This document shows positions 34,668 through 53,120 of a DNA stretch of 64,000 bases, piece after piece. The position numbers and the translations under genes are program-made. Numbering within the stretch: position 1 is the first letter of the stretch; every line of letters starts with the position of its first letter. Under the pieces are notes generated by a model that saw only the letters and a list, made by a program, of their open reading frames with translations, had not been told where the DNA came from and did no database searches. The stretch lies in assembly GCA_963664945.1 (NCBI GenBank), contig OY761822.1, positions 4,922,205-4,986,204 of the forward strand, in the 5' to 3' direction. The stretch is from Gammaproteobacteria bacterium. GTDB lineage: Bacteria > Pseudomonadota > Gammaproteobacteria > Steroidobacterales > Rariloculaceae.

Positions 34668-35939
34668 TCAACGGACCAGGGCTCCCAGGCGCAGCGCATC
34701 GAGGGGGCGAAGCGCGACGGCCAGCACGGCCGCAACCAGTATGGAATCGAATGCCGCCACGTTGGTCAGGGAGAAGATACCTGCCTGCGCCATGTAACCC
34801 GCCAAAATCGCGAGCAACCAGGCAAGCATCGCTCGATAGACGACGAGCGGTCGTTTCTTGCGGGCGGCTTCGTCGAACCGTGTCCGGAAGAGCAGCGTTT
34901 CCACGGCGTAGATGCTCGAAATCGGCGGAATGGTGATCCCGAGCAGAAGCAGGTAGGCCACCAGGTATTCGTCCACCCGTGTGAGGGCCAGCGCGGTGCC
35001 GACGATGCCGAAGGCCGCGATGATGGCCCAGAGCCTTGAACCGCGAAATATGGTCGCCATCGCGAGGGAGCCTGAGTACAGCGACAGCACGTTCGACGAC
35101 CAGGCCGCGAGCACGAGCAGGGCGAACGCGGGCAGGCCGATCCCGATCAGGATCATCACGTTGAGGATGTCGGGTTCGCCCATGGCAACGGCGGGAACCG
35201 CGGCAAGCGACAGCGTAAACGGAAACGAAATTCCCAGCGCAAGGAAGGCGGACCATGTCGCGGCCCTGCGCGAGCGCGCAAAGCGACTGTAGTCCGGTTG
35301 AATGGTGACGCCGGCGATGTAACTTCCGATGACGGCGGAGACGGCGGTATACAGGCTCATCGGTTGACCGCCGGTGGGCACGGTCCAGTCCTCTACCTCG
35401 GCGTAGGAAATGCCGGCTGCCACGCCCAGGAAAATCACCATAACCGGCACAAGCGCGAGCGCGAGCTTGTCGATTCCCTTGAACCCGGACAGCGTGACCC
35501 CGACCATCAGGGAGCTGCCCACGATCACGTAGAGTTCGATCGGCCAGTCCACTCCAAAGACGGTCGCGCCCAGTTGCGCACCGGCGCGGCCGAACATGGT
35601 CCCGGTGACGCCGTACCAGCCGAGCAACGAGCAGGCGACGGCCAGGTTCGCGACCTTGCCACCCCAGCGGCCGAACGCGAATTCGCTCAGCACGTAGGCG
35701 GAGAGGCCCGATTTCTGGCCGCACAGACCGGTCAACGCCGCCAGGCTGCCGAGCACGAAGCAACCGCAGGTGAAGGCGATGACCGCGTCCCTCAGTCCGA
35801 GGGAGGCGCCCATGGTCGCGGCCATGAGAAAGGCCGGAATGGCGATGGTTCCGCCGACAATCACCAGCGCGATGTGCCGGCCGGAATAGGTCGCCGACGA
35901 CGGTACCTGGGTCCTGGGGTAGTCGGAGCCTGCGCTCAT
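34668..35939 (-). CDS. NCS1-family cytosine/purine/hydantoin permease (CodB-like)
   Basis: About 12 hydrophobic segments; FGRWG, GWYGV, PDYSRFARS, NVLSLYS. Confidence 0.85.
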   Translation of the reverse strand: MSAGSDYPRTQVPSSATYSGRHIALVIVGGTIAIPAFLMAATMGASLGLRDAVIAFTCGCFVLGSLAALTGLCGQKSGLSAYVLSEFAFGRWGGKVANLAVACSLLGWYGVTGTMFGRAGAQLGATVFGVDWPIELYVIVGSSLMVGVTLSGFKGIDKLALALVPVMVIFLGVAAGISYAEVEDWTVPTGGQPMSLYTAVSAVIGSYIAGVTIQPDYSRFARSRRAATWSAFLALGISFPFTLSLAAVPAVAMGEPDILNVMILIGIGLPAFALLVLAAWSSNVLSLYSGSLAMATIFRGSRLWAIIAAFGIVGTALALTRVDEYLVAYLLLLGITIPPISSIYAVETLLFRTRFDEAARKKRPLVVYRAMLAWLLAILAGYMAQAGIFSLTNVAAFDSILVAAVLAVALRPLDALRLGALVR

Positions 35940-36029
35940 TTCAGGTCCCAACGCCGCTAGTCCGCACCGGACAGGGACCGCCGATGCCCGGGCACCGCGG
36001 CGACAGGGCCAGATATTGGCTGCACGGCA

Positions 36030-36887
36030 CTACGCGGCTGACAACTGTCCGTGCCCGGCGCGGCCTTCAGCCGCCACGACCAGCGTGTTCCCGAATTCGA
36101 TGTCGGACTGAAAAAGCCCGAAGTCGGCCAATTCGCGCTCCGGCGGCGGTTGCATCCCCCACACCCTGCTGTTGGTCCACCCCACCCGCTTGCCCAGCGC
36201 CGCATTCTCCGCGGCCTTCAAAGCGGCAATGGAGGGGTCGATGACAGGGACGAACGCGCTCAACCGGCTGGCCAGGTAGGCCTGAAGTTTGCGATAGAAG
36301 CCGACTTCGAGAGTACAACCGAGGATGATGGATTCGGCCCGGCGTTCGGCCACCGCCCGGTACGCGGCACGTTCCAGTCTGTCGCGCGTGCGCTCGGGGT
36401 CCTGGTGAAACTCCTCTACTCGCAAATCGACCGCCTCGAACGAAACCAGCTTGTCCTTGCCGCCGTAGTCGTGCACGGCCTGCTTCATCTGGTCTTCCCA
36501 TTTCCACTGCCCGATGATGACGGAGAAGTTGTTGGCCAGGTTGAGGGCGGCGGCAACGGACGCCTGGCACGGGGCAACGACGACGGTGTCGCCGGCGACT
36601 TCCCTCGCAGCAAGCAATGCCGGATCGTAGAAGCAACCGATGATCAGCGCGTCGTAGTCGTGCAGGGCGCAGTATCGGGCCGCCTTCACGGTCTCGTTGA
36701 AAATGCAGGCCTCGTACGCGCGGTATTCGAGGTTGCTCATGGCGGGCGAGACCGCCGAACCGGCCAGGGACGTCACGTGCACCGTGGTTTCCGGGTACTT
36801 GTATCGGCGCGCCATGTCGGCGAACACCTCGTCGTAGGCCGATGTTCCGACCGGATTCAGGTACATCACCTTGATGTCCATTTTCAT
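36030..36887 (-). CDS. Asp/Glu/hydantoin racemase family protein
   Basis: LNP N-terminus, catalytic Cys pair IIGCFYDP and IILGCT, PVIDP; RBS AGGAGG. Confidence 0.88.
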   Translation of the reverse strand: MKMDIKVMYLNPVGTSAYDEVFADMARRYKYPETTVHVTSLAGSAVSPAMSNLEYRAYEACIFNETVKAARYCALHDYDALIIGCFYDPALLAAREVAGDTVVVAPCQASVAAALNLANNFSVIIGQWKWEDQMKQAVHDYGGKDKLVSFEAVDLRVEEFHQDPERTRDRLERAAYRAVAERRAESIILGCTLEVGFYRKLQAYLASRLSAFVPVIDPSIAALKAAENAALGKRVGWTNSRVWGMQPPPERELADFGLFQSDIEFGNTLVVAAEGRAGHGQLSAA

Positions 36888-37038
36888 CGATATGGTCCCT
36901 CCTGCGCCTTGCCCCTGGAACGTTGACCCGGCTGCCAACCCGCTTGACGAGCGGGCATGTGTTTCGGTTGCCGAACCGCGCGGCCGGGAAGCTTCGGGAC
37001 CTGAACATCCACGGTCGAACCATCGGCCGAGCAAATCC

Positions 37039-37126
37039 ATTGCGCCTTGCGGGCATGAATGTGTCAACGACACCAACGGGTAGATGATGAGGTGCCCCGG
37101 GCGCGCTCACCCACCTGTATGGGTAG
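37039..37126 (-). promoter_or_regulatory. putative activator-dependent promoter with two CTACCC-N4-GGGTAG-like operators
   Basis: CGACACCAACGGGTAG 37068-83 and CCACCTGTATGGGTAG 37111-26. Minus-strand TTGACA (37067-62), 17 bp, then CGCAAT. Confidence 0.6.
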
Positions 37127-37282: not shown

Positions 37283-40006
37283 TCAGGGAATCAGCCGGAG
37301 ATTGCGCCCGGCCGCCACGGCCAGCATGCGCTTGTTGACGTCGAGCTTCGTAAAGATGTTTTTCAGGTGAAACTTGACCGTGTTTTCGGTCATGTCCAGC
37401 GCCCGCGCGATCCCCTTGTTGGACAGCCCGCTGGCGAGCTGTTCCAGGACCTCGCGCTCGCGCGGGCTGAGCACGGCCGCCGCATCGTCGGCGCCTGCGT
37501 CGATCGCGGCTTCCTTGAACCGATCCAGGCAGGCGGAAACGAATCGATGGGTCAGGCTGCCAAGCTGCAGTTCCCTTCGTTGGCGGTAAAGACGGGCCAG
37601 CAGCCGTTCAAGCGGTTTTCCGAAGTCAAGAAGCGGCCGGTAGGCGCCCTGTGCGACAGCCCACTCGATGGAGGCCGTCAATCCCTTCAATGCATCTTCC
37701 TGGCGGCCGCTGGCGTCAAGCAACAGCGCTCTCAGCAGTTCCGAGTCGAGCCTGCTCCAGCGATTGCCCGAGGCGGCGGCCAGTCCGGCGATCAGTTCCA
37801 CGGCCTTGAACCCGGCTTTGTGGTTGCGCGTGGCAAGGGCAGTCAACCCGTTGGCGACGCCGATCAGATGATCCCGCCGCCAGTCGGGCAACGCCCCGGC
37901 GCCGGGCCGGGACCGGATCGTGAGGTCCTTCTGGTGAAAGAGTCGGCGTGCGCGCTTGAGTTCGCCCGCGCGCACCAGCAGCAGGTATTCGTAGGCGTCA
38001 AGCAGGTCGGACAATCTCTCAAGGCTGCGATTCTCCGCGGTTTGCCGTCCGGAGGAAAGCACGGAAAACGCGGCCTCCAGACCCTTCTGGGCATAGGCGA
38101 GCAAGGCGGCGGTGCCGTAGCCGGCGGCGTACACGTCAAACCAACCATCGTAGTCCTCGGCGTACGCGAGCGCGGCACGCAGCTGTTCGGTCTCGTGTTC
38201 GTCGCGCAGATAATGGGCCGCCGCCCGGATGATGTCGGCGACGGCCTTCAGGCCGCTGTCGGCGCCGAAATTGTCCTCGGCCATGTCGTGAGCCTCGTCC
38301 AGCGTGGCGATGGCTTCGTTCAGCCGCCCCAGGAACAGGCTCGCCTGGCCTTCGTGGAGAAGGGCGTAGTTCAGACCCAGCACGCAATTGACCTCGCGCA
38401 TGTAGCGCTGCGACGTCTTGGCGTATTCCAGTGCCTCTTCGAAGGACCCGACGGCCAGCGCACCCACCGCCGCGATCGCGTAGATGATCGACCGGCCGGT
38501 GGAATCGGATCGCGTGAGGACCTGCTCCGTGGCGAGGATCGCCTTGATGCTGTCGCTGTCGGAGAGCCGGTCCTCGTAGGCTTCAAGCAGGTTGCCCATG
38601 AGCACGGTGTCGCGCCTGAGCGGTGCGGTTGCGTTGGTGCGATCCGAGAGCAGGTGCGAGTTCGTCTCCTTCAGCGACTCGAACAGCTGGTGGGCCTGGG
38701 CGATCTCGCCGTCCTTGATGAGCTGGTAGACGCGCGAGACCTGCAATCGCGGGAAACGGCCCAGTTCCGTCAGCGGAAAGTGCGAGATCAGTTGACGGTA
38801 GCGGGAAATGCCGCCGAAAAGGATCAGCTCCCAGCCCCCGGCGTCTTCAATGATGCGCGCGGCATATTCGAGGTTGCCCGCCAGGCACGCGTGCTCGACG
38901 GCCTGCACGGGCAGTTCGTGTTCCTCGTACCACTGCGCGGCCCGAAGGTGCAGCGCAAACAGTGCGTCGGGCTCGGTGCGCTCCAGAACGTTTTTCAGGA
39001 ACTCCGCAAACAGGTGATGGAAGCGATACCAGGCGCGCCCCCGGCCCACCGAGATGATGAGGGAATGCTGCTGCTTGAGCCGCTCGAGCAAGTCAAGGCA
39101 GTCGATTCGTTCGGACAGGCAATTGGCGAGATCGGCGTTGAACCGCTCGACGATGGACGTTCGCCTGAGTACGCGGCGAATGTTGTCCGGAAGATCCTGA
39201 TAGACCTGCTGGGCAAAGTAGTCGGCGATGTCGCCGGCGGATCCGGACAACTTGCGCACCACGTCTGCGAGCGAGGCTTCCTCGTGCAGCAGCGAACGCG
39301 CCATCTGCAACGCCATCGCCCAACCCTCGGTACGCTGCATCAGCGCGGCGATGTCCCGGTCGCTGCCGGAGGTGGCAAGGATTTCCCGCGCCTCCTCGGT
39401 GCTGAACCGCAGATCGTCGGCGGAGAACTCCTGCACCAGGCCGTTGATTTTCAGTGCCGAGTACCGGAATCCGGGCTTGCTGCGGGTGGCGACCGCGATG
39501 TGCGCATGTTCGGGCAGCAGTTCCAGCACGCTCTCGAATACGCGATCCGCGGACGGGCTTCCGGCGCGGTGATAGTCGTCGAAAATGATGGTCAGGCGGC
39601 CCCGGTGCTTGTTGAGCGCGGCCATCACGGCGCGCACCGCCGCATCGGGCGTCACGTCGACCAGACCCTGGTAGGCGAGCTTCTCGAGCGGTCCCATGTC
39701 CACGCCCGAAAAGCTCAGTGACAGGATCAGGTGCGACAACAACTGATCCGGTTCCCGATCGATCTCGTCGGTGGCAAGCCAGGCGACCTGGCGGCCGGCC
39801 TCCTTCAGGGCATCGGCCCACTGCGACAGCAGCGTGGATTTGCCGTATCCGGCGGGCGTCACGACCAGCGTGAGCACGCCGGCGAGCGTCGCATCGAGCC
39901 GCTGCAGCAGCGTGGACCGGCGGACCTGGGAAACAAGGCTGAACTGCGGCTCGAACTTGCCTTGCAAGAGCCAGGATTCAAAGTCGTCGAGTTGCTCGTC
40001 CATCAT
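37283..40006 (-). CDS. MalT/AlkS-family large ATP-binding LuxR regulator
   Basis: PAGYGKSTL, DDYH, TEGWAMALQ, YRFHHLFAEF; C-terminal LSPREREVL...NTVKFHLKNIFTKL. Confidence 0.92.
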   Translation of the reverse strand: MMDEQLDDFESWLLQGKFEPQFSLVSQVRRSTLLQRLDATLAGVLTLVVTPAGYGKSTLLSQWADALKEAGRQVAWLATDEIDREPDQLLSHLILSLSFSGVDMGPLEKLAYQGLVDVTPDAAVRAVMAALNKHRGRLTIIFDDYHRAGSPSADRVFESVLELLPEHAHIAVATRSKPGFRYSALKINGLVQEFSADDLRFSTEEAREILATSGSDRDIAALMQRTEGWAMALQMARSLLHEEASLADVVRKLSGSAGDIADYFAQQVYQDLPDNIRRVLRRTSIVERFNADLANCLSERIDCLDLLERLKQQHSLIISVGRGRAWYRFHHLFAEFLKNVLERTEPDALFALHLRAAQWYEEHELPVQAVEHACLAGNLEYAARIIEDAGGWELILFGGISRYRQLISHFPLTELGRFPRLQVSRVYQLIKDGEIAQAHQLFESLKETNSHLLSDRTNATAPLRRDTVLMGNLLEAYEDRLSDSDSIKAILATEQVLTRSDSTGRSIIYAIAAVGALAVGSFEEALEYAKTSQRYMREVNCVLGLNYALLHEGQASLFLGRLNEAIATLDEAHDMAEDNFGADSGLKAVADIIRAAAHYLRDEHETEQLRAALAYAEDYDGWFDVYAAGYGTAALLAYAQKGLEAAFSVLSSGRQTAENRSLERLSDLLDAYEYLLLVRAGELKRARRLFHQKDLTIRSRPGAGALPDWRRDHLIGVANGLTALATRNHKAGFKAVELIAGLAAASGNRWSRLDSELLRALLLDASGRQEDALKGLTASIEWAVAQGAYRPLLDFGKPLERLLARLYRQRRELQLGSLTHRFVSACLDRFKEAAIDAGADDAAAVLSPREREVLEQLASGLSNKGIARALDMTENTVKFHLKNIFTKLDVNKRMLAVAAGRNLRLIP

Positions 40007-40178
40007 TGTCGTGCGTTGAACGCCGCAAGGTGCGTGCACGCCTGTCGCGCGCGAAATCGGGCATCACCCGCCTGTGGCACGCGACCGGCGGGCAGCGCCT
40101 GCTGCGGCGTCGAGCGCGCGCGGTGCCGTGAGGTTCTCACATTACCAGCCCGAGGCAAAGCACGCAGACCCCGTAGGT

Positions 40179-42265
40179 CAGGGCTATTTCACGCTAGCCG
40201 GAAGTCGGTGATTTGAGGGGTTGGTCTCGGGGGTCTGGCTTTTCGGCGTTGTTTGGTGTACAACGCGCTGCATGTCGGCGGAATTCGACAAGGCGGCGGT
40301 GGTGGTCGGGGAGGTTGAGGTGCGTCCGGTCCGCGCGGAGGAGCGGCGGCGCTGGGATGCGCTGATGGAGGAGCACCACTACTTGGGTTTTCGGCAGTTC
40401 GCGGGGCGTGGTCTGCGCCATGTTGCGGAGTGGCGCGGGCACTGGCTGGCGCTTTTGGGCTGGCAGTCGGGGGCGTTCAAGTGCGCGCCGCGGGACCGCT
40501 GGCTGGGCTGGCACCGGTCGGTGCAGTTCCGGCGCCTGCACCTGATCGGGAACAACACGCGGTTTTTGGTGCTGCCGGCGGCGTCGGGGGTGCCCAACCT
40601 GGCGTCGCGGGCGCTGTCGCGGAGCGTGCGGCGGCTGAGCGGTGACTGGGCGGCGCTGCACGGGCATCCGCTGGAGTTGGCCGAGACGTTCGTGGACCCG
40701 GCGCGGTTTCGGGGCACGTGCTACGACGCGTCGAACTGGACGCGGGTGGGCCGCACGAAGGGCTTCGCGCGCCACAACGGCTCGTACACGGACCCGCACC
40801 GGGCGCCGAAGGAGATGTACGTGCGGGTGTTGCGTCGGGATGCGCGGCGGCGGCTCGCGGACCCGGCGGACCGCCCGGAGTGGTCGTGTCGGGCGGTGCC
40901 GGTGCGCTACACGCGCGCGGAGTTGCGTTCGCTGCGCGACCTGTTCGCGGAGGTGCCGGACGCGCGCCGCGGGCAGGGCCGCAAGCACCGCCTCGCGACG
41001 GTGCTGGCGATCTGCGCGCTGGCGCGGCTCGCCGGGCAGCACGGCCCGGCGGCGACTGAGCGCTTCGCGAGGAACCTGGAGCAGAAGGAACTGCGCGCGC
41101 TGCACGCTTGGCGCGACCCGGCGGCGGGGCGCTGGGTCGCGCCGTCGGACTCGACCGTCTGCCGGGTGCTGATGAACACCGACCCGGACGCGTTGCAGGA
41201 GGTGCTGTCGCGGTGGGCGGCGCCGCGCCTCGCGGCGGCGGACGACCCTCAGGTGCTGGCCGCCGACGGCAAGCGCATCCGCGGCGCCAACCGGCACACC
41301 GACGACGCGACGTACTTCGAGACGGTGACGCTGGTTACCCACGCCGGGCGCCCCGTCGCGAGCCGCTGCTGCCGCGACGACGGCGGCGAGATCGCGGCCC
41401 TGTGTGCGCTGCTCGAGGATGTCGACCTGCGCGGCTGCGTACTCACCCTGGACGCCCTGCACGCCACCCGCGACACCGCACGGACCATCGTCGAGACGCA
41501 CGGCGCGGACTACGTGCTGTCGGTCAAGGCGAACTGCCCCGACACCTTCGCCCAACTCACGGCGATCGACTGGGACGGCAACGACGTGCGCCACCACGCC
41601 GACGAACCCGCGAAGGCGCACGGGCGCATCGAGGCGCGCCGCATCGCCGCGCGCGACCTGCCGCCGAAGACGCTCGGACCCTTCCCCGGCGCCCGCCAGG
41701 CGTTCCGCGTCGTGCGCGAGCGCACCGACGCCAAGACCGGTGCAACCTCGGCCGAGACCGCCTACGGCATCACCACGGTGCCCGCCGAACGCGCCGCTCC
41801 GGCGCGGCTGCTGGCCTGGAACCGCGGCCATTGGCAGGTCGAGAACGCCAACCACTACCGCCGCGACGCCACCATGGGCGAGGACGCCAGCCGCGTCCGC
41901 AAGGGCCACGCACCCGCCAACAACGCCATCTTGAACAACATCGCGCTCGCCGTCGTGTTCCACCGCGGCTTCCGCTACCTGCCCGAGGCGAACCTCCACT
42001 TCATGATGCGCCGCGCAGACGCGCTCGACGCCATCCTGTCCCCGCACTGAGACACCCGGCCCCGCCGCCGCAAACCGCGCCCCCCCGCAAACGTCGCCGG
42101 CGACCCCTCTCCGCGCCGCGTTCCCGGACCCGCTTCCCCACCCACCCGGTGACGAATACGCCGCGCTCCATACACCAGCCCGGAACCCTCCGCACGCCTT
42201 GGCCCCCAAGCGGCCCGCGGAACGTCGCTTAGCCCGGCGTCGATCCGTAGCGTGAAATCACCCTG
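40179..42265 (+). mobile_element. complete ISAs1-family insertion sequence
   Basis: Terminal repeats CAGGGCTATTTCACGCTA and TAGCGTGAAATCACCCTG (16/18 match). 10-bp target duplication CCCCGTAGGT at 40169-78 and 42266-75. Confidence 0.93.
40272..42050 (+). CDS. ISAs1 transposase with N-terminal DUF4338 (DruA-like) domain
   Basis: HHYLG, NNTRFLVLP, ETFVDP, GTCYDASNW, GRTKG; then PDARRGQG, ADGKRIRG, TLDALH, VKAN, HGRIE, HWQVEN. Confidence 0.9.
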   Translation: MSAEFDKAAVVVGEVEVRPVRAEERRRWDALMEEHHYLGFRQFAGRGLRHVAEWRGHWLALLGWQSGAFKCAPRDRWLGWHRSVQFRRLHLIGNNTRFLVLPAASGVPNLASRALSRSVRRLSGDWAALHGHPLELAETFVDPARFRGTCYDASNWTRVGRTKGFARHNGSYTDPHRAPKEMYVRVLRRDARRRLADPADRPEWSCRAVPVRYTRAELRSLRDLFAEVPDARRGQGRKHRLATVLAICALARLAGQHGPAATERFARNLEQKELRALHAWRDPAAGRWVAPSDSTVCRVLMNTDPDALQEVLSRWAAPRLAAADDPQVLAADGKRIRGANRHTDDATYFETVTLVTHAGRPVASRCCRDDGGEIAALCALLEDVDLRGCVLTLDALHATRDTARTIVETHGADYVLSVKANCPDTFAQLTAIDWDGNDVRHHADEPAKAHGRIEARRIAARDLPPKTLGPFPGARQAFRVVRERTDAKTGATSAETAYGITTVPAERAAPARLLAWNRGHWQVENANHYRRDATMGEDASRVRKGHAPANNAILNNIALAVVFHRGFRYLPEANLHFMMRRADALDAILSPH

Positions 42266-42619
42266 CCCCGTAGGTATTGATTCCGATGGCCGCCGCCCAG
42301 GACAGACGGGACGCATAGTCGGTCGGACCGTACCCGACCACATGGCGGCAGATCCCGAAACGCGCGATCAGCAACACGAAAACCGCGATGAGGGCGGTCC
42401 ACGCGCTTCGACCCAGAACGGACCCCGATGCATAGACGAGATACAGGAGCGACATCATGACAATCGCCTGGACCGGTTCGGTCGGGGCAAGTGCAGGCCT
42501 CTTGGCGTCCCTCAGCGCGAGGCTCGCGAGGTTGTAACCGATCGCCAGAATGAAATACAGCCCGACCGCGAAGTTCAATTGCCGCTCGTCCATACGTTGC
42601 CCTCGTTCAAACCACTCAA

Positions 42620-44058: not shown

Positions 44059-45768
44059 CTACGGCGGTCCACGCCCGGACGGAGTCCCATCGGCGGTTGC
44101 GGCGTCCAGCCCGTAGACGGCCCTTGCCTCTTCGGCACTGATGTAGCCGTTCTTCAGATCGGCCAGAATCCTGGCGCGGGGCCGCTGTCGCGGATCGCCG
44201 AAACCGCCGCCGTTGGCGGTGACGATGCGCACGATATCGCCGCGCGCCAGTTCAAGATTGGCCGCGCGGGGCAACGCGGTGACGCCGCCGTCGGGCTCAA
44301 GCAGCTCAAGGCGGTTGCAGGAACCGTCCTGGCCGCCGGCAACGCCCCAGGGCGGTGTCGCCCGGCGGGTGTATTCGGCTGTCAGCCAGGCCCGCCTGCC
44401 CAGTATCCGGTAGCGCAGATCGATCCCCTTGCCGCCGCGGTACCGGCCGGCCCCGCCCCCTTCGCCGTTCAGGGTGAGTCTTTCGACTTCGATTCCGTTG
44501 CGGGCCTCGTTGATCTCCACCGGGCAATTGAAAGTGTCGCCATGGGATGCGGAGAATTGCGCGTTCTCCCCGTCCTTCAAGGCACTGCCTCCCCATCCGC
44601 CCACTTCGGGCTCGATGAAGGTGTGATCGGCGCCGCCGACATCCTCGCTGCGAATGAGCGTCGCGCAGATCGAGGAAAAGTGCCCTGCCGGCATTCTTTC
44701 GGGCATGTGCGGCGCCAGAGCCTTGCAGATCAGGTCGCCCGAACGGATCTTGTTCTCGTAGTACAGGCCGACCGCTGCCGGGGCCTCGGCGTGAAACAGC
44801 GTGCCGGGCGTGGTCAGCAATCTGAGGGGCCGAAAGCTGCCCGCATTGGCCCATTGTTCCGGGGCCACCACCCCCTTGAACGCGGCCTGCGCGCTGACCC
44901 GGGTGCTGTGCACGGTCGCGTTGAGCGGGCCCGGGTCCTGGGGCGGGTTATCGCGCAGGTCCACGATGAACGCGTCGTCCGTGATGGTGACCGCCGCTCG
45001 GACCACGCGCCCGTCGTCCATCCGGTCCTCGGCGTCGAAGCGGCCCTTGGGAAGCCCTTTCAATCCATTGCGCGAGACCTGCTCGCCGTATTCGAGATAG
45101 CGGCGGATGGCGTGATCGAGCTGTTCGGCGCCGTACTTGCGGCACAGTTCGCGAAGCCGCTGTTCACCGGTGCGAAGCGCGGAAATTCCGGCCCACAGGT
45201 CGCCGATGCACTGCTCGGGCAATCGGCTGTTTGCGCGAATGATGTCGAAGAGGGCTTGCACGGCCGTACCTGCCTCGAAGAGCCGCACATCGGGCAGGAT
45301 CAGGCCTTCCTGAAACACTTCCGATGCGGATGGCGACAAGGAGCCCGGTGTCATACCGCCCAGATCCAGCCAGTGCCCCTTGCTGGCCGTCCAGGCGATG
45401 AGGCGGTCTTCATGGAAAACGGGCATGGTCAGCGAGACATCGTTGATGTGGCTCACCCCGCCGGTGTACGGATCGTTCGAGATGAACACGTCCCCGGCGC
45501 GCACGTCGCCGCGGAATTTCCCGATGACGGTCTTGACCGCGGGGTCGAGCATGCCGACGAAGCTCGGAATGCCGGCGCCGGCGCTGGCCAGTTCGCCCTC
45601 GGCATCGGTGATGGCCACGCCGAAGTCCAGAACCTCGTAAATGACCGAGCTCATGGCCGCGCGGGCCATGGAGGAGAACATCTCGTCGGTGATGGCGGTG
45701 AGCGAGAGCTGGATGATTTCGGCGGTGAACGGGTCCGGATCGTCGATGAAGCCCGGTGAGTTGTTCAC
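44059..45768 (-). CDS. hydantoinase B/oxoprolinase family subunit (copy 2)
   Basis: RAAMSSVIYE, NDPYTGGVSHINDV, GHWLDLGG, FQEG, GAGRYRGG, TANGGGFGDP. Confidence 0.92.
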   Translation of the reverse strand: MNNSPGFIDDPDPFTAEIIQLSLTAITDEMFSSMARAAMSSVIYEVLDFGVAITDAEGELASAGAGIPSFVGMLDPAVKTVIGKFRGDVRAGDVFISNDPYTGGVSHINDVSLTMPVFHEDRLIAWTASKGHWLDLGGMTPGSLSPSASEVFQEGLILPDVRLFEAGTAVQALFDIIRANSRLPEQCIGDLWAGISALRTGEQRLRELCRKYGAEQLDHAIRRYLEYGEQVSRNGLKGLPKGRFDAEDRMDDGRVVRAAVTITDDAFIVDLRDNPPQDPGPLNATVHSTRVSAQAAFKGVVAPEQWANAGSFRPLRLLTTPGTLFHAEAPAAVGLYYENKIRSGDLICKALAPHMPERMPAGHFSSICATLIRSEDVGGADHTFIEPEVGGWGGSALKDGENAQFSASHGDTFNCPVEINEARNGIEVERLTLNGEGGGAGRYRGGKGIDLRYRILGRRAWLTAEYTRRATPPWGVAGGQDGSCNRLELLEPDGGVTALPRAANLELARGDIVRIVTANGGGFGDPRQRPRARILADLKNGYISAEEARAVYGLDAATADGTPSGRGPP

Positions 45769-45848: not shown

Positions 45849-47522
45849 TTACCGTGCCAGCCCGTACTCCTCGTGGGCCTGCTCCGGGGTGATGTAGCCG
45901 TTGAGCAGGTCACGCTCGATGGCGTCGCGGTCGCGCTCGCCGGGGTCCCCGTAACCGCCGCCGTTGGCCGTGGTCAGGCGGATGACCTCGCCCTTCTCGG
46001 CGCGCACCGTGGTGCACATGCCGAAGCGCTCGACCCGGCCGTCGTTGCGCAGGATCTGTGCGTAGTTCGTGCTGCCCTCGGCACCGCCGGACAGCCCCCA
46101 GGGCCGGCTCTCGGTGCGGCTGGCGGCATACGTCAGAAAAGCCTCGTCGGAAGTCACACGGTAGTCGAGCACAACCCCCCTGCCGCCCCGGAATCGCCCG
46201 GCGCCGCCGCCGGCCATGTTGAAGGCGTACTGCTCGACCGCCAGGCCGTAGCGGCTCTCGAACAACTCCACCGGGACGTTGTAGGTCTCGCCGTTTCCGC
46301 AACAGAACTGCCCGTTGTCGCCGTCGAGCCCCCTTGAGGCGCCCCAGCCTCCCACCAGCGGTTCGCCCATGACAAAGAGGTCGCCGGTGTCCGGGTGAAG
46401 CCCGGAAATGAACGTGGCGCCGACGCTGCGCTGGTGCCCGGCCGACAGCGCATCCGGAAGGACCGGTGCGAGGGCTTTCCACATCACGTCGATGGCGGCG
46501 ATCAGCGCTTCGTAGTACAGGGAGACCGGCGCCGGGGAGCACGCGGAAATCAGGGTGCCCCGCGGGCAGACGACTTCAAGCGGGCGGAAACAGCCGCCGT
46601 TGGCCGGAAGTTCCGGGTTCGTGACGGCCTTGAACAAACATCTGGCCCCGGTGACCAGCCCCGTGTACGAGCAGTTGATGGGGCCGGGCACCTGGGGTGA
46701 GGTGCCGGAGAAATCGGCAATCATCCTGTCGCTTGCCACGGTGACCTTCACGCGAATGGTGAACGGCCCGTTTCCGAGTCCGTCGTCTTCCACCACGTCC
46801 TCGGCCTCGTAGACGCCATGGGGGAGCTTCGCCAGTTCCGCGAGCGTCATGCGCTCGCCGTAGACCAGCAGTGCCTCCATCGCCGCCAGCACATCGTCAC
46901 GCCCGTACTTGTGCACGAGTTCCAGAATTCGGTTGCCGCCGACCCGCGCGGCGGCCACGCCGGCGTGCATGTCCCCGATTGTCGAATCGGGCAACCGCAC
47001 GTTGTCCCGTATCAGCTGGACCAGAGAATTATTCAGACGCCCTTCCTCGTAGAGCTTCAGAAACCTGAAGTGCAGGCCCTCCTGAAAGATCTCCGTCGCC
47101 TCGGTGGACACGCTTCCCGGTTGCGTGCCGCCCACCTCCGTCCAGTGCGCCTTGTTGACCGTGAACGCGATCAACCGCTCGCCGTGAAACACCGGCAGAA
47201 CGATGACGACATCGGAAAGGTGCGTGCCGCCGCCCGCGTAGGGGGAGTTGGTAATGATCACGTCGCCCGGGCGGATATCGCCCGGGTCCGGATAACGCTC
47301 CAGCGTGCTCTGCACCGCGGTATCGAGCGTGGCGAGAAACGCCGTGACGCCGTTGCCCTGGCCAAGGAGATTTCCCTTCGCGTCGGTGACGCCCACGGCG
47401 AAGTCGGTGGTCTCGTAGATGATGGGGCTCATCGAGGTGCGTATGACGGCGTTGAACATCTCCTCGCCGATCGCCACCAGCGAGTCCTTGATGATCTCCG
47501 TCGTGAATACATCTGTTGTCAT
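45849..47522 (-). CDS. hydantoinase B/oxoprolinase family subunit (copy 1)
   Basis: RTSMSPIIYE, PYAGGTHLSDV, AHWTEVGG, FQEG, GAGRFRGG, TANGGGYGDP. Confidence 0.92.
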   Translation of the reverse strand: MTTDVFTTEIIKDSLVAIGEEMFNAVIRTSMSPIIYETTDFAVGVTDAKGNLLGQGNGVTAFLATLDTAVQSTLERYPDPGDIRPGDVIITNSPYAGGGTHLSDVVIVLPVFHGERLIAFTVNKAHWTEVGGTQPGSVSTEATEIFQEGLHFRFLKLYEEGRLNNSLVQLIRDNVRLPDSTIGDMHAGVAAARVGGNRILELVHKYGRDDVLAAMEALLVYGERMTLAELAKLPHGVYEAEDVVEDDGLGNGPFTIRVKVTVASDRMIADFSGTSPQVPGPINCSYTGLVTGARCLFKAVTNPELPANGGCFRPLEVVCPRGTLISACSPAPVSLYYEALIAAIDVMWKALAPVLPDALSAGHQRSVGATFISGLHPDTGDLFVMGEPLVGGWGASRGLDGDNGQFCCGNGETYNVPVELFESRYGLAVEQYAFNMAGGGAGRFRGGRGVVLDYRVTSDEAFLTYAASRTESRPWGLSGGAEGSTNYAQILRNDGRVERFGMCTTVRAEKGEVIRLTTANGGGYGDPGERDRDAIERDLLNGYITPEQAHEEYGLAR

Positions 47523-47525
47523 CGG

Positions 47526-49607
47526 TCAATCCTCCCCGGAGATGGCCACGTGGTAGTTGCCGTAGCCGTCCACGGATACTTCGTGACCCGGCGCCACGAC
47601 GAGGGTCACCGCCGGCTCCTGCACCACGGCGGGCCCCTCGAACGTCATGCCGGGTTCCAGTTTCAGGCCATCGTAGATCGCCGCCTCGTGAACGCCGTGG
47701 CGGTCGAAATCCACGGTTCGGCGCGGCAGCGCGGCCTGTTCGAGTGTCCGCCCCGTGACCGGTTTGCCCGAGAGCTCGGGTTTTGCGACGGGAACGATCG
47801 CCACGAGGTGAAAGTTGACGATCTGAACGCTCGTGTCCAACCGGTAGGTAAAGCGCTGCTCGTGGGCGTCGTGAAAGCGGGCGATCGCGTCAGCGACATC
47901 GAATCGATCGTCGGGATCGGAAATGGGCAAGGCGACCTTCACCGTGTGTTCCTGGCCCTGGTAGCGCATGTCGGCGTGGAACTCGAACGCGACCCGCGAA
48001 GCGGAAATGCCTTCTTCGGCGTAGTCCCCGTGCGCCTGATCGATCATCGACGCGAACGTTTCGGTGACGACCGGGGCGCTCGCGGGCTCCATTTGCATGG
48101 GCCGGGTCTGAAGGTAGTCCCGGCGCAGGTCGGTGAGCAGCATACCCCAGGCGGAGAACACCGCCGAGTTGACGGGCACGATGACCTGGGGCACTTTCAG
48201 TTCCTCGGCGAGCGCCACCGCGTGCATGGCGCCGCCGCCGCCGAAGGCGACCAGGGCGAAGTCGCGCGGATCGTAGCCCTTGTTGGTCGAAACGAGCCGA
48301 AGCGCGTTGGTCATGTTGGCGTTGGCGATTCGTATCACGCCCCGGGCAAGCGACTCGCGATTCATGCCGAGCCGGTCCTGGAGCGGTTTGAAAGCCGCGT
48401 CCACGGCCTCCCAGTTCGGGTCGATTTCCCCGCCCGCGAAACTGTCCGGATCGATCCGCCCGAGCACCAGGTTCGCGTCCGTCGTGGTCGGTTCGTCCCC
48501 TCCCCTGCCGTAGGCCGCCGGTCCCGGAACCGCACCGGCGGATTGCGGGCCCACGTGCAGCTTGCCGCCCCCGTCCACCCACGCGATCGAACCGCCGCCG
48601 TTGCCGATCTCGACGATTTCCGACACCGGCGTCTGGATGGGATAGCCGGGGTTCTTGCGGGTCCTGCCGATGTAGTAGTCGGTGCCGACCTTCACCTCAC
48701 CGTTTTCGATGAGCGCGCACTTGGCGGTGGTGCCGCCGATATCCAGCACGATCAGGTTCTGTTCGCCGATGGCCTTGCCGAGGTAGGCCGCGGCGAATAT
48801 TCCGCTGGCGGGCCCGGACTCCACCATCGTGATGGGGTTGGCCTTCGCCGCCGAGACGGTGGCGATTCCACCGTTGGACTGCATCATGAAGGCCTTGCCC
48901 CCGAATCCGCCCGCGGCCAGTTTGTCCTCCAGCGATTCGATATAGCGATTCGCGATCGGGTGCACGTACGCCGCAAGCACCGTGGTATTGGTCCGCTCGT
49001 ACTCCCGCCACTCGCGGCTGATCTGGTGGGAGGCGAGCACCGAAATCTCCGGCCACAGCCGCTTGATCCGCTCCACCACGCGGCGCTCGTTGTCCGGATT
49101 TGCGTAGGCGTGAAGGAAGCACACGGCGATAGCCTGCACGCGCTGCGAACGGAAGAAGTCCAGCAGTTCGGGAAGCGGGTCGAGATTCACCGGCAGCAGC
49201 ATCCCACCCTTGTACGTGACCCGCTCCTCGAGTTCCGCTCTCAGGTAGCGCTCGACAAAGGGCCTGGGTTTTCTGAAATTGAAATTGAACAGATCGGGGC
49301 GGTTTCCCCGTGCAATCTCAAGCACGTCGCGAAATCCCCTGGTGGTGATCAACGCGGTCCTGACGCCCTTCTTTTCGGTGAGCGCGTTGATCACGACCGT
49401 GGTTCCGTGCGCGAAGAACGACAGGTCCGCCGGAGACAGGACGGCCTTCGTCATGGACGCCATGACCCCTTCTTCGAAGTTCGGCGGCGTCGTATCGGTT
49501 TTCGCCGTGCTCACGGGACCGCACGCGTCGGTCGATGCGTCCACGGAGTAGAACACGAGGTCCGTGAACGTGCCGCCGACGTCGCTGGCTGCCCTGAAGG
49601 TGCTCAT
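47526..49607 (-). CDS. hydantoinase A/oxoprolinase family ATP-binding subunit
   Basis: DVGGTFTD, HGTT, EYER, SGPASG, DIGGTT, GPQSAGAVPGP, RYQGQ. Confidence 0.94.
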   Translation of the reverse strand: MSTFRAASDVGGTFTDLVFYSVDASTDACGPVSTAKTDTTPPNFEEGVMASMTKAVLSPADLSFFAHGTTVVINALTEKKGVRTALITTRGFRDVLEIARGNRPDLFNFNFRKPRPFVERYLRAELEERVTYKGGMLLPVNLDPLPELLDFFRSQRVQAIAVCFLHAYANPDNERRVVERIKRLWPEISVLASHQISREWREYERTNTTVLAAYVHPIANRYIESLEDKLAAGGFGGKAFMMQSNGGIATVSAAKANPITMVESGPASGIFAAAYLGKAIGEQNLIVLDIGGTTAKCALIENGEVKVGTDYYIGRTRKNPGYPIQTPVSEIVEIGNGGGSIAWVDGGGKLHVGPQSAGAVPGPAAYGRGGDEPTTTDANLVLGRIDPDSFAGGEIDPNWEAVDAAFKPLQDRLGMNRESLARGVIRIANANMTNALRLVSTNKGYDPRDFALVAFGGGGAMHAVALAEELKVPQVIVPVNSAVFSAWGMLLTDLRRDYLQTRPMQMEPASAPVVTETFASMIDQAHGDYAEEGISASRVAFEFHADMRYQGQEHTVKVALPISDPDDRFDVADAIARFHDAHEQRFTYRLDTSVQIVNFHLVAIVPVAKPELSGKPVTGRTLEQAALPRRTVDFDRHGVHEAAIYDGLKLEPGMTFEGPAVVQEPAVTLVVAPGHEVSVDGYGNYHVAISGED

Positions 49608-49619
49608 GCCGGGGCCGCC

Positions 49620-51926
49620 TCAGAAATTGTAGCGGTAATCGAGACGCCAGATCCGGGGGACGGCCGGATGGACGAACAACGGCGTGACGATTTCCGAATT
49701 GTAGATTTCGTCGGTCGCGTTGTTGAGGTAGGCCGACACGGTCCAGTCGGGACCCTCGAGCCCGACACGCAGGTTGAGCAGGCCGAGCGAATCCCTCGGA
49801 TGGGTGTTTTCCGGGGTCCAGTACTGCTCGCCGCGCAATTCGTAGTCCGCGCGCGCGAAGTACGTCAACCCGTTGCCCGCGTCCGCGCGAGCCTGCGCGC
49901 CGATGTTGAAAGTGCCGTCGGCGACGTACGGCAGGACATTGCCGACCGTTCCGGGCCTTTCGTCATAGGCGGTGATTTCGGTGTCCGTCGTGCCGTAGGC
50001 GGCGTAGAAATCCAGATTGTCGCTGGCGCGCCAGACCGCCTCGATTTCGATGCCGCTCAGTTCGGCCTCGTCGATGTCCTCGAAGACCTGCACGAAGGCC
50101 TGCCCGTCGAAGGGGAAGTACTGGGTGTTTTCAACGGACGAATCGAACCAGGCGGCATTGAGCCGAAGCCCGCCGAACTGGGCCTTGACCCCCAGCTCGA
50201 ACGCGCTGTTTTCTTCCTGATCGATGACGTCCTTGGCCAGTTGGCTGATGACGCCGATACCGGGGTAATTGTACTGCCCGGCACGGTAACCGATGCCCCA
50301 GCTGCCGTAGAGGTTGACGTTATCGGAAATGCCGTAGCCCAGGGTGATCTTCGGCTGAAACTTGCTGAACATCTTCTCGTTCTGGTCCCTGGACGGACGC
50401 GTGTGGGCCAGTAACTGCTCGAACGTGGAGTAGGCGCCGCAGTTGACGTTCGGTACGTCGCTCGCCGATCCGGTGCACGCTCCACCGCCATAGGGCACGT
50501 GAACGCCGTTGAGCGGTTCGCTGTACACGCGCCCGGCGGTATTGTAGGAATTGATGTTCTGTACGCGCGTTTCCTCGTCGTATCGCGCGGCCAGGGAAAG
50601 CGTCAGCGCCTCGCTGACGTCCACATCCAGACTGGCGAAGACGGCCCAGGCGTTGCTGTCCTCCAGGAACGACAGGAAGTTCCCGGGCGCGGTTCCCGTC
50701 GGATTCGTGCTGCTCTCGAACTCCGGTACGGTGGTGGGACGCTTGATGCCCAGCCCCTTGTCGTCTCCGGAGGCCGTGGTTCGCAGCCGCTCCCAGGACA
50801 GGTAGTAGGCCCCGGCCTGAGCGTGCATCCGCTCGCCTATATCGGACTCGAATCTGATCTCCTGGCTCCATCCCTCCACGTTGGCGTAGGTGTGCTGAGT
50901 GCCATCGAGAATTGAAAGATAGGGTGCGCGGTCGGCAACGGAGGAGGCCTCCAGCTCGTCGAACGTGGTCACGGACTTGAAATCGGCGAAGCCCAAGTCC
51001 CTGTCGATCTTGAGCGAGATGCTGGCGGTGTCGCGAAAGCCCCGGTCGGGGTTGTTGGCCACGTACGGGATATTCACCAGGTTGGCGCCCTCGGCGTTGA
51101 CCTGCTCCGGCGTGACCCCCAGTTCCGCCCCGGTCCCCACGAACACGCCGAATTGCTCGAAGTTGGCCGCGCCGGGCCAATGAAACCCGATGCCCTTGCC
51201 TTCATGCTTGGAGATCTGGGCCTTGAGATCCACGAGCAGGTCGGAACCCGGCGACCAGCTCAGTCGCCCCCGAATGGTCCTGTCGCTGAACGGATCCACT
51301 TCATCGTCCAGCGTCACGTTGCGAAAGTAACCGTCGCGTTCAAGCACCCGGCCGGACAGCCGAAACGCCAGATCCTCCGCGATGGGGCCGCTGAAGGACG
51401 CCTCCACACCGATTTCGTCCGCCGTTCCGTAGCTCATCTTGACGTAGCCCTCGGGCTCGCTCGTCGGCGGGTTGGTCGTGATGATGATGGCGCCGTTGGT
51501 GGCGTTTCGCCCGTACAGCGCCCCCTGGGGACCCTTGACCACCTCGATCTGGCGGACATCGAATATCTGGCTGATGAACTGGCGCGCGTTGACGATCAGC
51601 ACGTCGTCCACCACCACCGCGACGGGCAACTCGCCGTTGCGTACCCGGCTCAGCCCGCGCACGGTGAGAAAGGACGTTCCCATCGTCTGGGATTCGGCGA
51701 GCGTCACGTTGGGCGTGAGCTGGATGAAGTCCGCTGTCTGGACGATGCCGGCGTCTTCGATCTGCTCGGCGGTGTAGGCGTTGACCGTGATGGGAGCGTC
51801 CTGAATGGTTTCCTCGACGCGCCGGGCCGTCACCACGATTTCTTCCAGTTCGGCTTGCGCCAGCACCTCGAAGCTGGCCGCCAGGGTCATGGCAATACAA
51901 ACGAATCTCAGTCGGCAATCGATCAT
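49620..51926 (-). CDS. TonB-dependent outer-membrane receptor
   Basis: Signal peptide, LEEIVVTARR TonB box, IEVVKGPQGALYGRNATNG, C-terminal YRYNF. Confidence 0.93.
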   Translation of the reverse strand: MIDCRLRFVCIAMTLAASFEVLAQAELEEIVVTARRVEETIQDAPITVNAYTAEQIEDAGIVQTADFIQLTPNVTLAESQTMGTSFLTVRGLSRVRNGELPVAVVVDDVLIVNARQFISQIFDVRQIEVVKGPQGALYGRNATNGAIIITTNPPTSEPEGYVKMSYGTADEIGVEASFSGPIAEDLAFRLSGRVLERDGYFRNVTLDDEVDPFSDRTIRGRLSWSPGSDLLVDLKAQISKHEGKGIGFHWPGAANFEQFGVFVGTGAELGVTPEQVNAEGANLVNIPYVANNPDRGFRDTASISLKIDRDLGFADFKSVTTFDELEASSVADRAPYLSILDGTQHTYANVEGWSQEIRFESDIGERMHAQAGAYYLSWERLRTTASGDDKGLGIKRPTTVPEFESSTNPTGTAPGNFLSFLEDSNAWAVFASLDVDVSEALTLSLAARYDEETRVQNINSYNTAGRVYSEPLNGVHVPYGGGACTGSASDVPNVNCGAYSTFEQLLAHTRPSRDQNEKMFSKFQPKITLGYGISDNVNLYGSWGIGYRAGQYNYPGIGVISQLAKDVIDQEENSAFELGVKAQFGGLRLNAAWFDSSVENTQYFPFDGQAFVQVFEDIDEAELSGIEIEAVWRASDNLDFYAAYGTTDTEITAYDERPGTVGNVLPYVADGTFNIGAQARADAGNGLTYFARADYELRGEQYWTPENTHPRDSLGLLNLRVGLEGPDWTVSAYLNNATDEIYNSEIVTPLFVHPAVPRIWRLDYRYNF

Positions 51927-51976
51927 CGGCTTGCTCCGTGTTGTTGTCGGCGGGCCGTCTCCCCTTTTACGATTCG

Positions 51977-52074
51977 ATTGTCTTAGCGCGGGCAACGCGA
52001 ACAAACCGCGCGAAAGGGTAGTCAGCAGACCTTTTCTGACCCTGTCAGCGCCCCTGACCTACCCGTTCGGGTGG
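51977..52074 (-). promoter_or_regulatory. putative activator-dependent promoter with two CTACCC-N4-GGGTAG-like operators
   Basis: CCGCGCGAAAGGGTAG 52006-21 and CTACCCGTTCGGGTGG 52059-74. Minus-strand TTTGTT, 17 bp, GACAAT, in the same geometry as at 37039-37083. Confidence 0.6.
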
Positions 52075-52184
52075 TTGAACGGGGACCGGCCTGGGTATTC
52101 CCTTGCACGCCGTCTGGTTCGGAGTTGCCGGGCCGGGGGCCATCGAGCCGGGACCGGTCGACGGTCGCGGGCGGATTGATATAA

Positions 52185-53120
52185 GTGAAAATACTAAACG
52201 CTGAGCGGGTGGCGGAATGTCTCGACTACAAGGCTCTGATCGAGGCCTTGAGATCCGGGCTTGCGGGGACTGGATCGTCTCCATCGCGAATGAGGCTTGA
52301 GACAGGGTCATTGGACGACCGGAAGCTGCTGTTGGTAAAGCCGGCCTGGGATGACGACGCGGCCATCATCAAGCTGCTGACCCTGAACGAGATGAACAGA
52401 AAGACGGAACTGCCCTTCATTCAAGGGGTGATCGTCGCATTTGACCAGGCGACCGGAAGTCCGACATGCATCATGGACGCACGGGAGCTTACCTGTCGGC
52501 GCACCGCGGCTGCGTCCGCGCTGGCGGCGGACTACCTGGCGATTCCGAACGCGCGCGTCCTGACGCTGATCGGTACCGGAACGCTGGCGCCGCACATGGC
52601 GCTGGCACACGCGGTGAACAGGCCCATCCGGCTCGTCAATGTATTCGGACGAAGCCCGGAGAAGGCAGAGGCAACCGCCGAAGCGATCCAGCGTGCAGAC
52701 CCGAGCGTCAATACCCGGGTGGCGGCGGACCTTCCCACAGCTGTATGCGAAGCGCAGATCGTATGTGCGGCGACTTCAAGCGCTACGCCCCTGGTAAAGG
52801 GAGCCTGGATATCCAATGGCACGCACATCGACCTGGTGGGAAGCTACAGGCCCGATGCACGAGAAGCAGACGACGACGCCATTGCCATGGCCCGCGTATT
52901 TGTGGACGATCGCGCTGCCGCGATGAAGGAGGCGGGAGACATTCTGGTACCCGTCGAGAAAGGCGTGATTTCCCAATCCGATGTGATCGGCGACCTTGCC
53001 GAACTGTGCGGCGGCGTCGTCCAGGGTCGCATCGGCGAAAGCGAGGTCACGGTATTCAAGTCGGTAGGTATGGCGCTGGAAGATCTCATTGCGGCAAAGC
53101 TTGTCCTTGGGAACGCATAG
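52185..53120 (+). CDS. ornithine cyclodeaminase/mu-crystallin family imine reductase
   Basis: KPAW, RRTAAASALAA, GTGTLA, HIDLVGS, FKSVGMALED. Confidence 0.9.
   Translation: MKILNAERVAECLDYKALIEALRSGLAGTGSSPSRMRLETGSLDDRKLLLVKPAWDDDAAIIKLLTLNEMNRKTELPFIQGVIVAFDQATGSPTCIMDARELTCRRTAAASALAADYLAIPNARVLTLIGTGTLAPHMALAHAVNRPIRLVNVFGRSPEKAEATAEAIQRADPSVNTRVAADLPTAVCEAQIVCAATSSATPLVKGAWISNGTHIDLVGSYRPDAREADDDAIAMARVFVDDRAAAMKEAGDILVPVEKGVISQSDVIGDLAELCGGVVQGRIGESEVTVFKSVGMALEDLIAAKLVLGNA

Follow-up and report, generated by a model that had tools for sequence, protein, structure and literature searches.

The window analyzed here, a stretch of 64,000 nucleotides (G000:C1:4922205-4986204) from a gammaproteobacterial genome assembled as a single contig of 5.9 Mb, encodes a genuine, conserved and co-regulated system of the HyuAB/CapAB type. 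Its eight genes specify a TonB-dependent receptor, a single A subunit (HydA), two B subunits (HydB1 and HydB2, hereafter B1 and B2), an MFS transporter, a MalT-like regulator, a two-cysteine racemase and an NCS1 permease (Table 1). To judge from the sequence, they constitute a regulon of two operons, receptor-A-B1-B2-MFS and racemase-NCS1, with the gene of the MalT-like activator between them. By analogy with characterized relatives, the general mechanism is very probably the uptake, epimerization and ATP-dependent opening of a chiral cyclic amide; the whole reading, in which the substrates would be proline-containing 2,5-diketopiperazines (cyclic dipeptides), is suggested by gene content and stands somewhat below an even chance. 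The named relatives of the genome are 'Candidatus Rariloculaceae' and Pseudohongiella-like Pseudomonadales metagenome-assembled genomes, one public run that holds part of the window is labeled a sponge metagenome, and the system is a conserved eight-gene regulon of sponge-associated marine bacteria.

Genes were assigned by scanning the proteins of the window with Pfam and NCBIfam profiles, and their starts were refined from alignments of orthologues and the N-terminal signal peptide. The true starts of the racemase and receptor genes lie downstream of the longest possible reading frames, at ATG 36887 (preceded by AGGAGG) and ATG 51926 (with a signal peptide), respectively; the regulator probably starts with MMDEQL at 40006. 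The gene order of a preliminary description of this DNA (receptor-hydA-hydB1-hydB2-MFS-regulator-racemase-NCS1 on the minus strand, with a divergent OCD-family gene) stands, apart from a 'membrane protein' between the MFS and regulator genes that is an artefact of an insertion sequence.

Table 1. Features of the cluster and its immediate surroundings (window positions)
Feature	Position	Strand	Basis or remark
NCS1-family permease (CodB/Fcy-like), second in racemase operon	34668-35951	-	PF02133, 46.7 bits
Two-Cys Asp/Glu/hydantoin racemase family protein, 285 amino acids	36030-36887	-	PF01177
Operator of racemase-NCS1 promoter	37067-37126	-	conserved blocks, 7/7 aligned genomes
MalT-like (LAL/STAND) transcription activator	37283-40006	-	GerE, TPR_MalT
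ISAs1-family insertion sequence, outside the system	40178-42265	+	transposase 40221-42050
Small hydrophobic open reading frame, 139 amino acids, doubtful gene	42258-42677	-	no Pfam family
MFS transporter, two frames	42620-43997	-	MFS_1 matches
HydB2, predicted metal-dependent hydrolytic beta subunit, paralogue 2	44059-45768	-	PF02538, 503 bits
HydB1, predicted metal-dependent hydrolytic beta subunit, paralogue 1	45849-47522	-	PF02538, 562 bits
HydA, predicted ATP-binding alpha subunit (ASKHA fold)	47526-49607	-	Hydant_A_N, Hydantoinase_A, Hydant_A_C
TonB-dependent outer-membrane receptor	49620-51926	-	plug and barrel domains; heads its operon
Operator of receptor-A-B1-B2-MFS promoter	52005-52074	-	conserved blocks, 7/7 aligned genomes
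Predicted Delta1-pyrroline-2-carboxylate/Delta1-piperideine-2-carboxylate reductase (OCD/mu-crystallin family), divergent neighbor	52185-53120	+	NF004793

The earlier proposal that these genes form one conserved unit under common regulation is borne out by its recurrence in two architectures and by a common operator at both promoters. The contiguous order receptor-A-B1-B2-MFS-regulator-racemase-NCS1 is found, without the insertion sequence, in L023-L026 and in L028 (= G015), at 78-92% identity, and a metagenome contig that is 96-99% identical to the window (L064) carries the genes from A to the regulator and then ends. Receptor orthologues occupy the same position at 80-81% identity, and so do NCS1 orthologues at 84-92% (L023-L026, L028 and L020). 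In the split architecture the genes form two convergent operons, racemase-receptor-B2-MFS and A-B1-NCS1-regulator, in which B1 goes with NCS1 and B2 goes with the receptor and the MFS transporter; this arrangement was checked in full in G012, G123, G077 and L068, and was deduced from the coordinates of B2 and B1 in G113, G137, G144, G151 and G223. Across the sample of the order, matches at E<=1e-120 were found in 19 of 401 genomes. The flanks of the L023 cluster, the only one of L023-L025 to be scanned for this, are housekeeping genes. An apparent B1-B2 fusion of 1152 amino acids in L026 was rejected, as a stop codon ends B1.

Other relatives vary the ratio of A to B. One A accompanies three Bs in L106 and two in L109; two A-B pairs are present in L069, L071, L076 and L078; single A-B pairs of the B2 type are found in L027, L029, L057 and G196, and a single B in L038-L041. 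The L106 cluster (2705-17753) consists of a MalT-like gene and a TonB receptor, followed by A, B1 (84%), a third B (63% to B1), NCS1, B2 (74%) and MFS.

Both promoters carry an inverted pair of CYACCC hexamers that forms the palindrome CYACCC-N5-GGTRGG and, downstream of it (43 nt in the racemase operon, 53 nt in the receptor operon), a third box, CTACCC-KTT-G-G-GTT. At the racemase promoter the palindrome is CTACCCATACAGGTGGG (37110-37126) and the box is CTACCCGTTGGTGTCGT (37067-37083), followed by TTGACA; at the receptor promoter they are CCACCCGAACGGGTAGG (52058-52074) and CTACCCTTTCGCGCGGT (52005-52021), in a region common to the divergent reductase gene. The footprint was delimited by aligning the orthologous promoter regions of seven genomes, and its conservation in every one of them, together with the added third box, strengthens the earlier observation of shared operator-like palindromes. 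On its own, the 17-nt palindrome pattern is non-specific (4 matches in the genome versus 6 for the reversed control), and the window has no excess of the hexamer CTACCCR taken by itself (8 occurrences versus 7.18 expected); palindrome and third box together occur at only these two promoters in the whole genome. A repeat search across the whole region returned nothing but similarities between the coding sequences of the B paralogues and inverted repeats expected by chance.

The natural candidate for binding this operator is the regulator whose gene lies between the two operons. It has the architecture of the LAL family, with an N-terminal STAND NTPase, MalT-type TPR and a C-terminal LuxR helix-turn-helix (GerE, 68 bits, and TPR_MalT, 48.6 bits, are above their cut-offs; AAA_16 and nSTAND matches are below theirs). 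MalT and other LAL regulators act at arrays of asymmetric boxes, and the three hexamer copies upstream of each promoter, two inverted and one direct, resemble such an array. Unlike the MalT box of E. coli, the box here is CYACCC/GGGTRG, and the regulator misses the MalT equivalog (247 bits, cut-off 537). Related motifs precede both operons of the split architecture, though its regulator is only 35% identical.

HydA, the sole A gene of the locus, matches Hydant_A_N (145 bits), Hydantoinase_A (313 bits) and Hydant_A_C (74 bits), and retains intact the nucleotide motifs defined for the A subunit of CapAB (PMC8453981): DVGGTFTD at residue 9, DIGGT at 289 and GAVPGP at 358. Among solved proteins it is closest to N-methylhydantoinase (7hk5, 436 bits), then to CapA (6yra, 376 bits). 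B1 and B2 align end to end with N-methylhydantoinase (288 and 226 bits, respectively) and with CapB, and each keeps the metal ligands that were defined and mutated in CapB (Asp41, His99, Asp102 and His124; PMC8453981) as Asp40, His101, Asp104 and His126 in B1 and as Asp48, His107, Asp110 and His132 in B2.

As far as its sequence goes, the locus is similar to CapAB of Pseudomonas jessenii (6YRA) and OplAB, which are two-subunit ATP-dependent lactam hydrolases, sharing the DxGGTxTD, DxGGT and GxxPGP motifs of A and the Asp-His-Asp-His metal site of B (full-length alignments to CapAB score 376, 196 and 190 bits for A, B1 and B2). It differs in having one A and two Bs, a TonB receptor, a racemase, two inner-membrane transporters and a MalT-like activator; at the positions of CapB Tyr136 and Leu38, B1 has Val and Glu, and B2 has Leu and Glu. 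None of the three subunits reaches the 1000-bit cut-off of the CapA and CapB equivalogs NF050156 and NF050157 (A 508, B1 255 and B2 230 bits).

The two Bs are old paralogues, both under purifying selection as estimated from their sequences. They are 44% identical over 552 residues and form separate, starred clades inside one clade of 31 rows in a tree of 53 sequences, with the metal tetrad present in every aligned row of either clade. Ratios of nonsynonymous to synonymous substitution (dN/dS), computed against three orthologous clusters, are 0.065-0.073 for B1 and 0.10-0.12 for B2 (0.065-0.124 for the B genes overall), close to those of the racemase (0.09-0.12) and of the A, receptor, regulator and NCS1 genes (0.06-0.13 overall; NCS1 0.06-0.10, regulator 0.11). 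The preliminary description had allowed that one copy might be inactive or a recent duplicate; the two are neither.

The genome encodes four B domains, three full A domains and one short HydA-like gene, so that B2 has no A of its own. B1 and B2 may be alternative partners of the single A, each with a specificity of its own, on the assumption that B2 binds A. A tree of A subunits places that of the window, at a moderate support of 86, together with those that belong to B2-type pairs.

Two sets of observations weigh against a necessary role for B2 and the MFS transporter: in the window genome the MFS gene is frameshifted and has an insertion sequence behind it, and in G001 B2 is cut to residues 11-108 and part of the MFS gene is deleted. 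Both, together with the intact A-B1 of G001 and the single B of many relatives, would be expected of an ordinary locus in which B2 is a superfluous or decaying copy and A with B1 makes a 5-oxoprolinase or N-methylhydantoinase. Such a locus is very improbable. The divergence, metal site and selective constraint of B2, and its retention with B1 in two architectures, are not those of a decaying copy; the same genome already has a fused oxoprolinase-type gene of 1215 amino acids elsewhere; breakdown of 5-oxoproline or N-methylhydantoin does not need a racemase; and the cluster lacks creatinine deaminase and carbamoylsarcosine amidase. In G001 the lesion (L019 17333-18011) consists of deletions that remove the middle of the MFS gene and leave ~100 codons from the start of B2 joined to a piece of it; A, B1, the regulator, the racemase and NCS1 are intact, and the B2-MFS module was lost independently here.

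The two Bs may also come together in a mixed A2-B1-B2 particle. In CapAB a beta-beta contact joins the (alpha-beta)2 particle (PMC8453981), so two different betas could occupy one particle. An obligate mixed core, A-B1-B2-A, instead of two alternative enzymes would suit the adjacency and co-transcription of B1 and B2 in the contiguous architecture, and has a parallel in acetophenone carboxylase of the same superfamily, which by its molecule names forms particles from paralogous subunits. This proposal concerns architecture only, would hold for any substrate and is not counted among the substrate readings. It is unlikely, given that the split architecture places B2 in a different operon from A and B1, that G001 keeps A-B1 without B2, that simple A-B pairs exist for each B type (L027, L029 and L057 for the B2 type; L038-L041 with a single B), and that L106 has three Bs. 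Alternative pairing of one A with either B remains the preferred architecture.

The racemase (PF01177, 88.2 bits, cut-off 31) has as its closest solved relative the fungal epimerase OpaE (9qbx, E 1.2e-24), followed by allantoin and hydantoin racemases (3qvj and 5lfd, E 5.9e-13), and the cysteines of its 'IIGCF' and 'LGCT' motifs align with the catalytic Cys90 and Cys199 of OpaE (PMC12661438). OpaE, an enzyme of oxepinamide biosynthesis, acts on an amino-acyl carbon within a cyclized peptide, epimerizing the D-Phe residue of a cyclized non-ribosomal peptide (PMC12661438). It is biosynthetic, fungal and quasi-unidirectional, whereas the racemase of the locus belongs to a bacterial operon for uptake and catabolism. 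The NCS1 permease is below the cut-off of the NCBIfam cytosine permease (182 bits versus 326).

Linkage to a TonB-dependent receptor, reported earlier for this locus, proves to be a general trait of the enzyme clade: among 65 metagenome loci found with B1 as the query, 39 have such a receptor beside A-B, and of the loci of at least 12 kb, 30 of 35 do. L122, L102, L089, L066 and about 30 further loci share a widespread low-GC (31-36%) marine operon of the form receptor-A-B-(cupin)-racemase or OCD-NCS1-DUF917-short HydA, which joins two different ATP-dependent ring-opening systems. DUF917 ('S-Me-THD-like') and short HydA genes follow NCS1 in both of the low-GC relatives that were scanned beyond it (L089 and L066), and L089 has an OCD-family gene where others carry the racemase. 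All four single-B clusters from a sister genus (L038-L041) include a gene for a bacterial aspartyl protease of the pepsin-like A1 family, set between housekeeping genes such as AlaRS, RecA and PEPCK, and this protease was counted among the clues to the substrate.

Two other hydantoinase-type loci lie outside the window in the same genome. At G000:C1:5874391-5887652 (L060 2392-15653), a TonB receptor that is 38% identical to that of the window is divergent from the genes HydA-HydB-PutA-PepQ, behind which a VC_2705-type sodium/solute symporter is encoded. At G000:C1:1282857-1288048, on the minus strand, are an NCS1-like permease, a short HydA, DUF917 and an OCD-family gene, with a match to a TonB receptor fragment ~4 kb away.

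In the proposed pathway, a scarce compound would enter through the outer membrane by way of the TonB-dependent receptor and through the inner membrane by way of NCS1 and the MFS transporter, which may carry the same compound or two related ones. The racemase would interconvert stereoisomers at the carbon next to the ring carbonyl, A would activate the ring amide with ATP, as in CapAB, and the activated intermediate would pass to a B subunit, where, again by analogy with CapAB, metal-bound water would open the ring. Opening of a proline diketopiperazine would yield Xaa-Pro dipeptides, for which a prolidase (PepQ), PutA and a Delta1-pyrroline-2-carboxylate (Pyr2C) reductase are encoded beside related loci.

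The favoring of proline diketopiperazines over hydantoins or amino-lactams draws on these neighbors, on the resemblance of the racemase to OpaE and on the failure to find an M20-type carbamoylase above its cut-off in the genome. PepQ is divergent from A in 5/8 split-type genomes (G012, G123, G137, G151 and G223) and lies beside the A/B2-like locus L027, with scores of 477-504 bits against the Xaa-Pro dipeptidase equivalog (cut-off 339); the only PutA (Pro_dh) and the only strong PepQ of the window genome are co-linear, on the same strand, with its second HydA-HydB pair; PutA replaces the reductase in L026 and is near L115; an OCD-family gene belongs to the L089 operon; and an AMP_N-type M24 peptidase is encoded between B and the racemase in the L081 operon. 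By a rough estimate, with no formal test and with kin that are not independent, such adjacencies are far above chance. Clusters of cyclodipeptide oxidase are enriched in PF01177 racemases and DUF917 (PMC11055893). The suggestion of a cyclic dipeptide in the preliminary description thus gains comparative support from the proline-specific neighbors and the OpaE-like racemase, while the identity of the substrate continues to be inferred only.

Several observations weigh against this choice of substrate. A proline-linked neighbor was found in only 3/65 metagenome loci, and none was found with these queries in L023-L025; G077 and G144 have no PepQ match, and the PepQ of G113 is on another contig, which is also the case in five relatives of the second HydAB pair. 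The PepQ orthologues of G015 and G001 are encoded far away from the cluster and without any of these genes close by. Firmicute relatives (L035) adjoin an M20 peptidase and a histidine ammonia-lyase-type gene, without proline genes. The closest solved enzyme is N-methylhydantoinase, which does not act on peptides, NCS1 and a PF01177 racemase are the classical pair of hydantoin utilization, and the low-GC marine form adds the pair of DUF917 and short HydA, the former tied to thiohydantoins by its Pfam name.

These last features are also what a hydantoin-type pathway would present, in which a 5-substituted hydantoin or an allantoin- or thiohydantoin-like ring would be racemized by the racemase and opened by A/B to an N-carbamoyl amino acid for an unlinked or non-M20 carbamoylase: all three subunits have N-methylhydantoinase as their top solved match, and the racemase also matches the allantoin and hydantoin racemases. 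Classical hyu clusters comprise an NCS1 permease, a hydantoin racemase, a hydantoinase and an N-carbamoylase, and Pseudomonas sp. NS671 reportedly combines an ATP-dependent hydantoinase with a racemase (hyuA/hyuB/hyuC/hyuE). The locus is like hyu clusters in placing NCS1 and a two-Cys racemase beside the ring-opening enzyme, but it has an ATP-dependent A/B hydrolase, adds a TonB-dependent receptor and an MFS transporter, and lacks an M20-type carbamoylase. In line with the earlier description, the genome has no M20-type carbamoylase above the TIGR01879 cut-off of 204 bits (its best match scores 37 bits; the CN-hydrolase type was not searched), and none was found in the conserved clusters examined. 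N-methylhydantoinase itself (a fused A-B protein, 7HK5 and 9H03) and HyuA/HyuB are alike in the ATP-dependent opening of a five-membered cyclic amide, an activity that the locus may share by analogy. It differs from N-methylhydantoinase in its separate subunits and duplicated B, in the absence of creatinine-pathway genes and in having a racemase, for which N-methylhydantoin offers no stereocenter. A hydantoin-type pathway also leaves the recurring PepQ, PutA and OCD neighbors unexplained and does not account for a racemase nearer to OpaE than to allantoin racemases; it is rather unlikely.

Utilization of lactams or amino-lactams is improbable. In such a pathway, compounds like the lactams of ornithine and lysine, valerolactam or caprolactam would be opened to ornithine or lysine, and the D-forms would proceed through Pyr2C or Delta1-piperideine-2-carboxylate (Pip2C) to proline or pipecolate with the aid of the adjacent reductase. 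The conversion of D-ornithine and D-lysine to Pyr2C and Pip2C is established biochemistry, the adjacent gene is by its NCBIfam assignment a bifunctional Pyr2C/Pip2C reductase, PutA neighbors fit proline as an end product, and in the third locus of the genome the other OCD-family gene accompanies NCS1, short HydA and DUF917. The racemase of alpha-amino-caprolactam, on the other hand, is dependent on pyridoxal phosphate and not a PF01177 protein; the subunits are far under the CapA and CapB cut-offs, even though the caprolactamase CapAB is of the same family (PMC8453981, PMC6061476), and Xaa-Pro dipeptidase neighbors are left unexplained.

Nor is the reductase a conserved member of the set, as the preliminary description had supposed. 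The gene passes the Pyr2C/Pip2C reductase equivalog NF004793 narrowly (330.1 bits versus 322), which makes this its predicted activity, and it adjoins the cluster only in its own genome, G015 and G001, at 58-61% identity, whereas the cluster genes reach 80-92%. The window query found no OCD-family gene in L023-L025, and PutA takes its place in L026. The genome has only two OCD-family genes, both beside hydantoinase-type loci.

Proline diketopiperazines thus remain the favored substrates. More tentatively still, these loci may encode a bacterial diketopiperazine hydrolase in which one A works with interchangeable Bs, each tied to its own inner-membrane transporter, fed by the receptor and provided with an OpaE-like epimerase for rings that contain D- and L-residues. 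Cyclic dipeptides abound as metabolites and signals of microbes and hosts. The enzymes that open their rings were still called 'unknown enzymes' in 2013 (PMC3852281), and it has been guessed that some 'oxoprolinase' genes may encode cyclic dipeptide hydrolases (PMC6061476). A literature search found no paper that assigns a gene to diketopiperazine hydrolysis, and the locus is therefore worth testing as a concrete candidate, with its subunits, racemase, transporters, regulator and operator specified. Since the receptor-A-B-racemase-NCS1 module is widespread in marine metagenomes, the proposal would, if true, describe a general route of cyclic-dipeptide consumption in the sea and in sponge hosts. 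Whatever the substrate, three features are not described for the HyuAB/CapAB family in the literature examined: one A for two or three diverged Bs, systematic coupling to a TonB receptor, and a MalT-type operator at both operons. Searches on TonB with hydantoinase B, and on sponge symbionts with hydantoinase, returned nothing relevant.

Besides the two gene starts, the annotation of the region is corrected at an insertion sequence and a frameshift. The 'membrane protein' of the preliminary description, a minus-strand reading frame of 671 amino acids (40194-42209) with no family match, is rejected: it lies in a patch of 72% GC, antisense to the real gene, a plus-strand ISAs1 transposase (NF033564, 165.8 bits versus a cut-off of 70). 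The element, of ~2088 bp, belongs to the ISAs1 family by its transposase, its terminal inverted repeats, a target duplication of 9-10 bp (CCCCGTAGG at 40169-40177 and 42266-42274) and a site that is empty in relatives. The empty-site joint (40168->42266) is found in contigs of three public runs (X1, X6 and X7), and the element is absent from L064, G015 and L023-L026. Since 16 of its 20 near-full genomic copies are identical, the element appears to have been active recently; its depth in public runs is 20-200 times that of its flanks, and the N-terminal domain of its transposase (609 amino acids) matches Pfam DruA (Druantia protein, 72 bits).

Beside the insertion, the element-free contigs of X1, X6 and X7 differ from the window at many positions (42300-42408, within a patch at 42266-42410) that could reflect recombination or an assembly effect; the X1 contig has 19 differences in all and agrees with the window again further right. 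The element clips the 139-codon reading frame at its 3' end, and G015, with a gap of 68 bp between the MFS and regulator genes, has no room for that frame.

A run of eight Gs in the MFS gene (~43474-43481) has one G too many, which puts the two halves of the gene in different frames and aligns with a one-base gap in G015; MFS_1 positions 1-145 are matched by the N-terminal half and 143-347 by the C-terminal half in the other frame. The extra G is present in X1 and missing from G015, L064 and the contigs of X5, X6 and X7, so the break is either a strain-level pseudogene or a homopolymer error.

Directly downstream of the NCS1 gene, on the plus strand (window 30553-34652), is a pair of genes unrelated to the cluster, for an SNF2-family helicase (1086 amino acids, DUF3670) and a SWIM zinc-finger protein (362 amino acids). 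On the far side of the reductase gene, window 54325-57925 holds a plus-strand gene of the Haem_oxygenas_2 family (iron-containing redox enzyme) and a minus-strand gene for a CBM9/DUF5916 protein of 842 amino acids.

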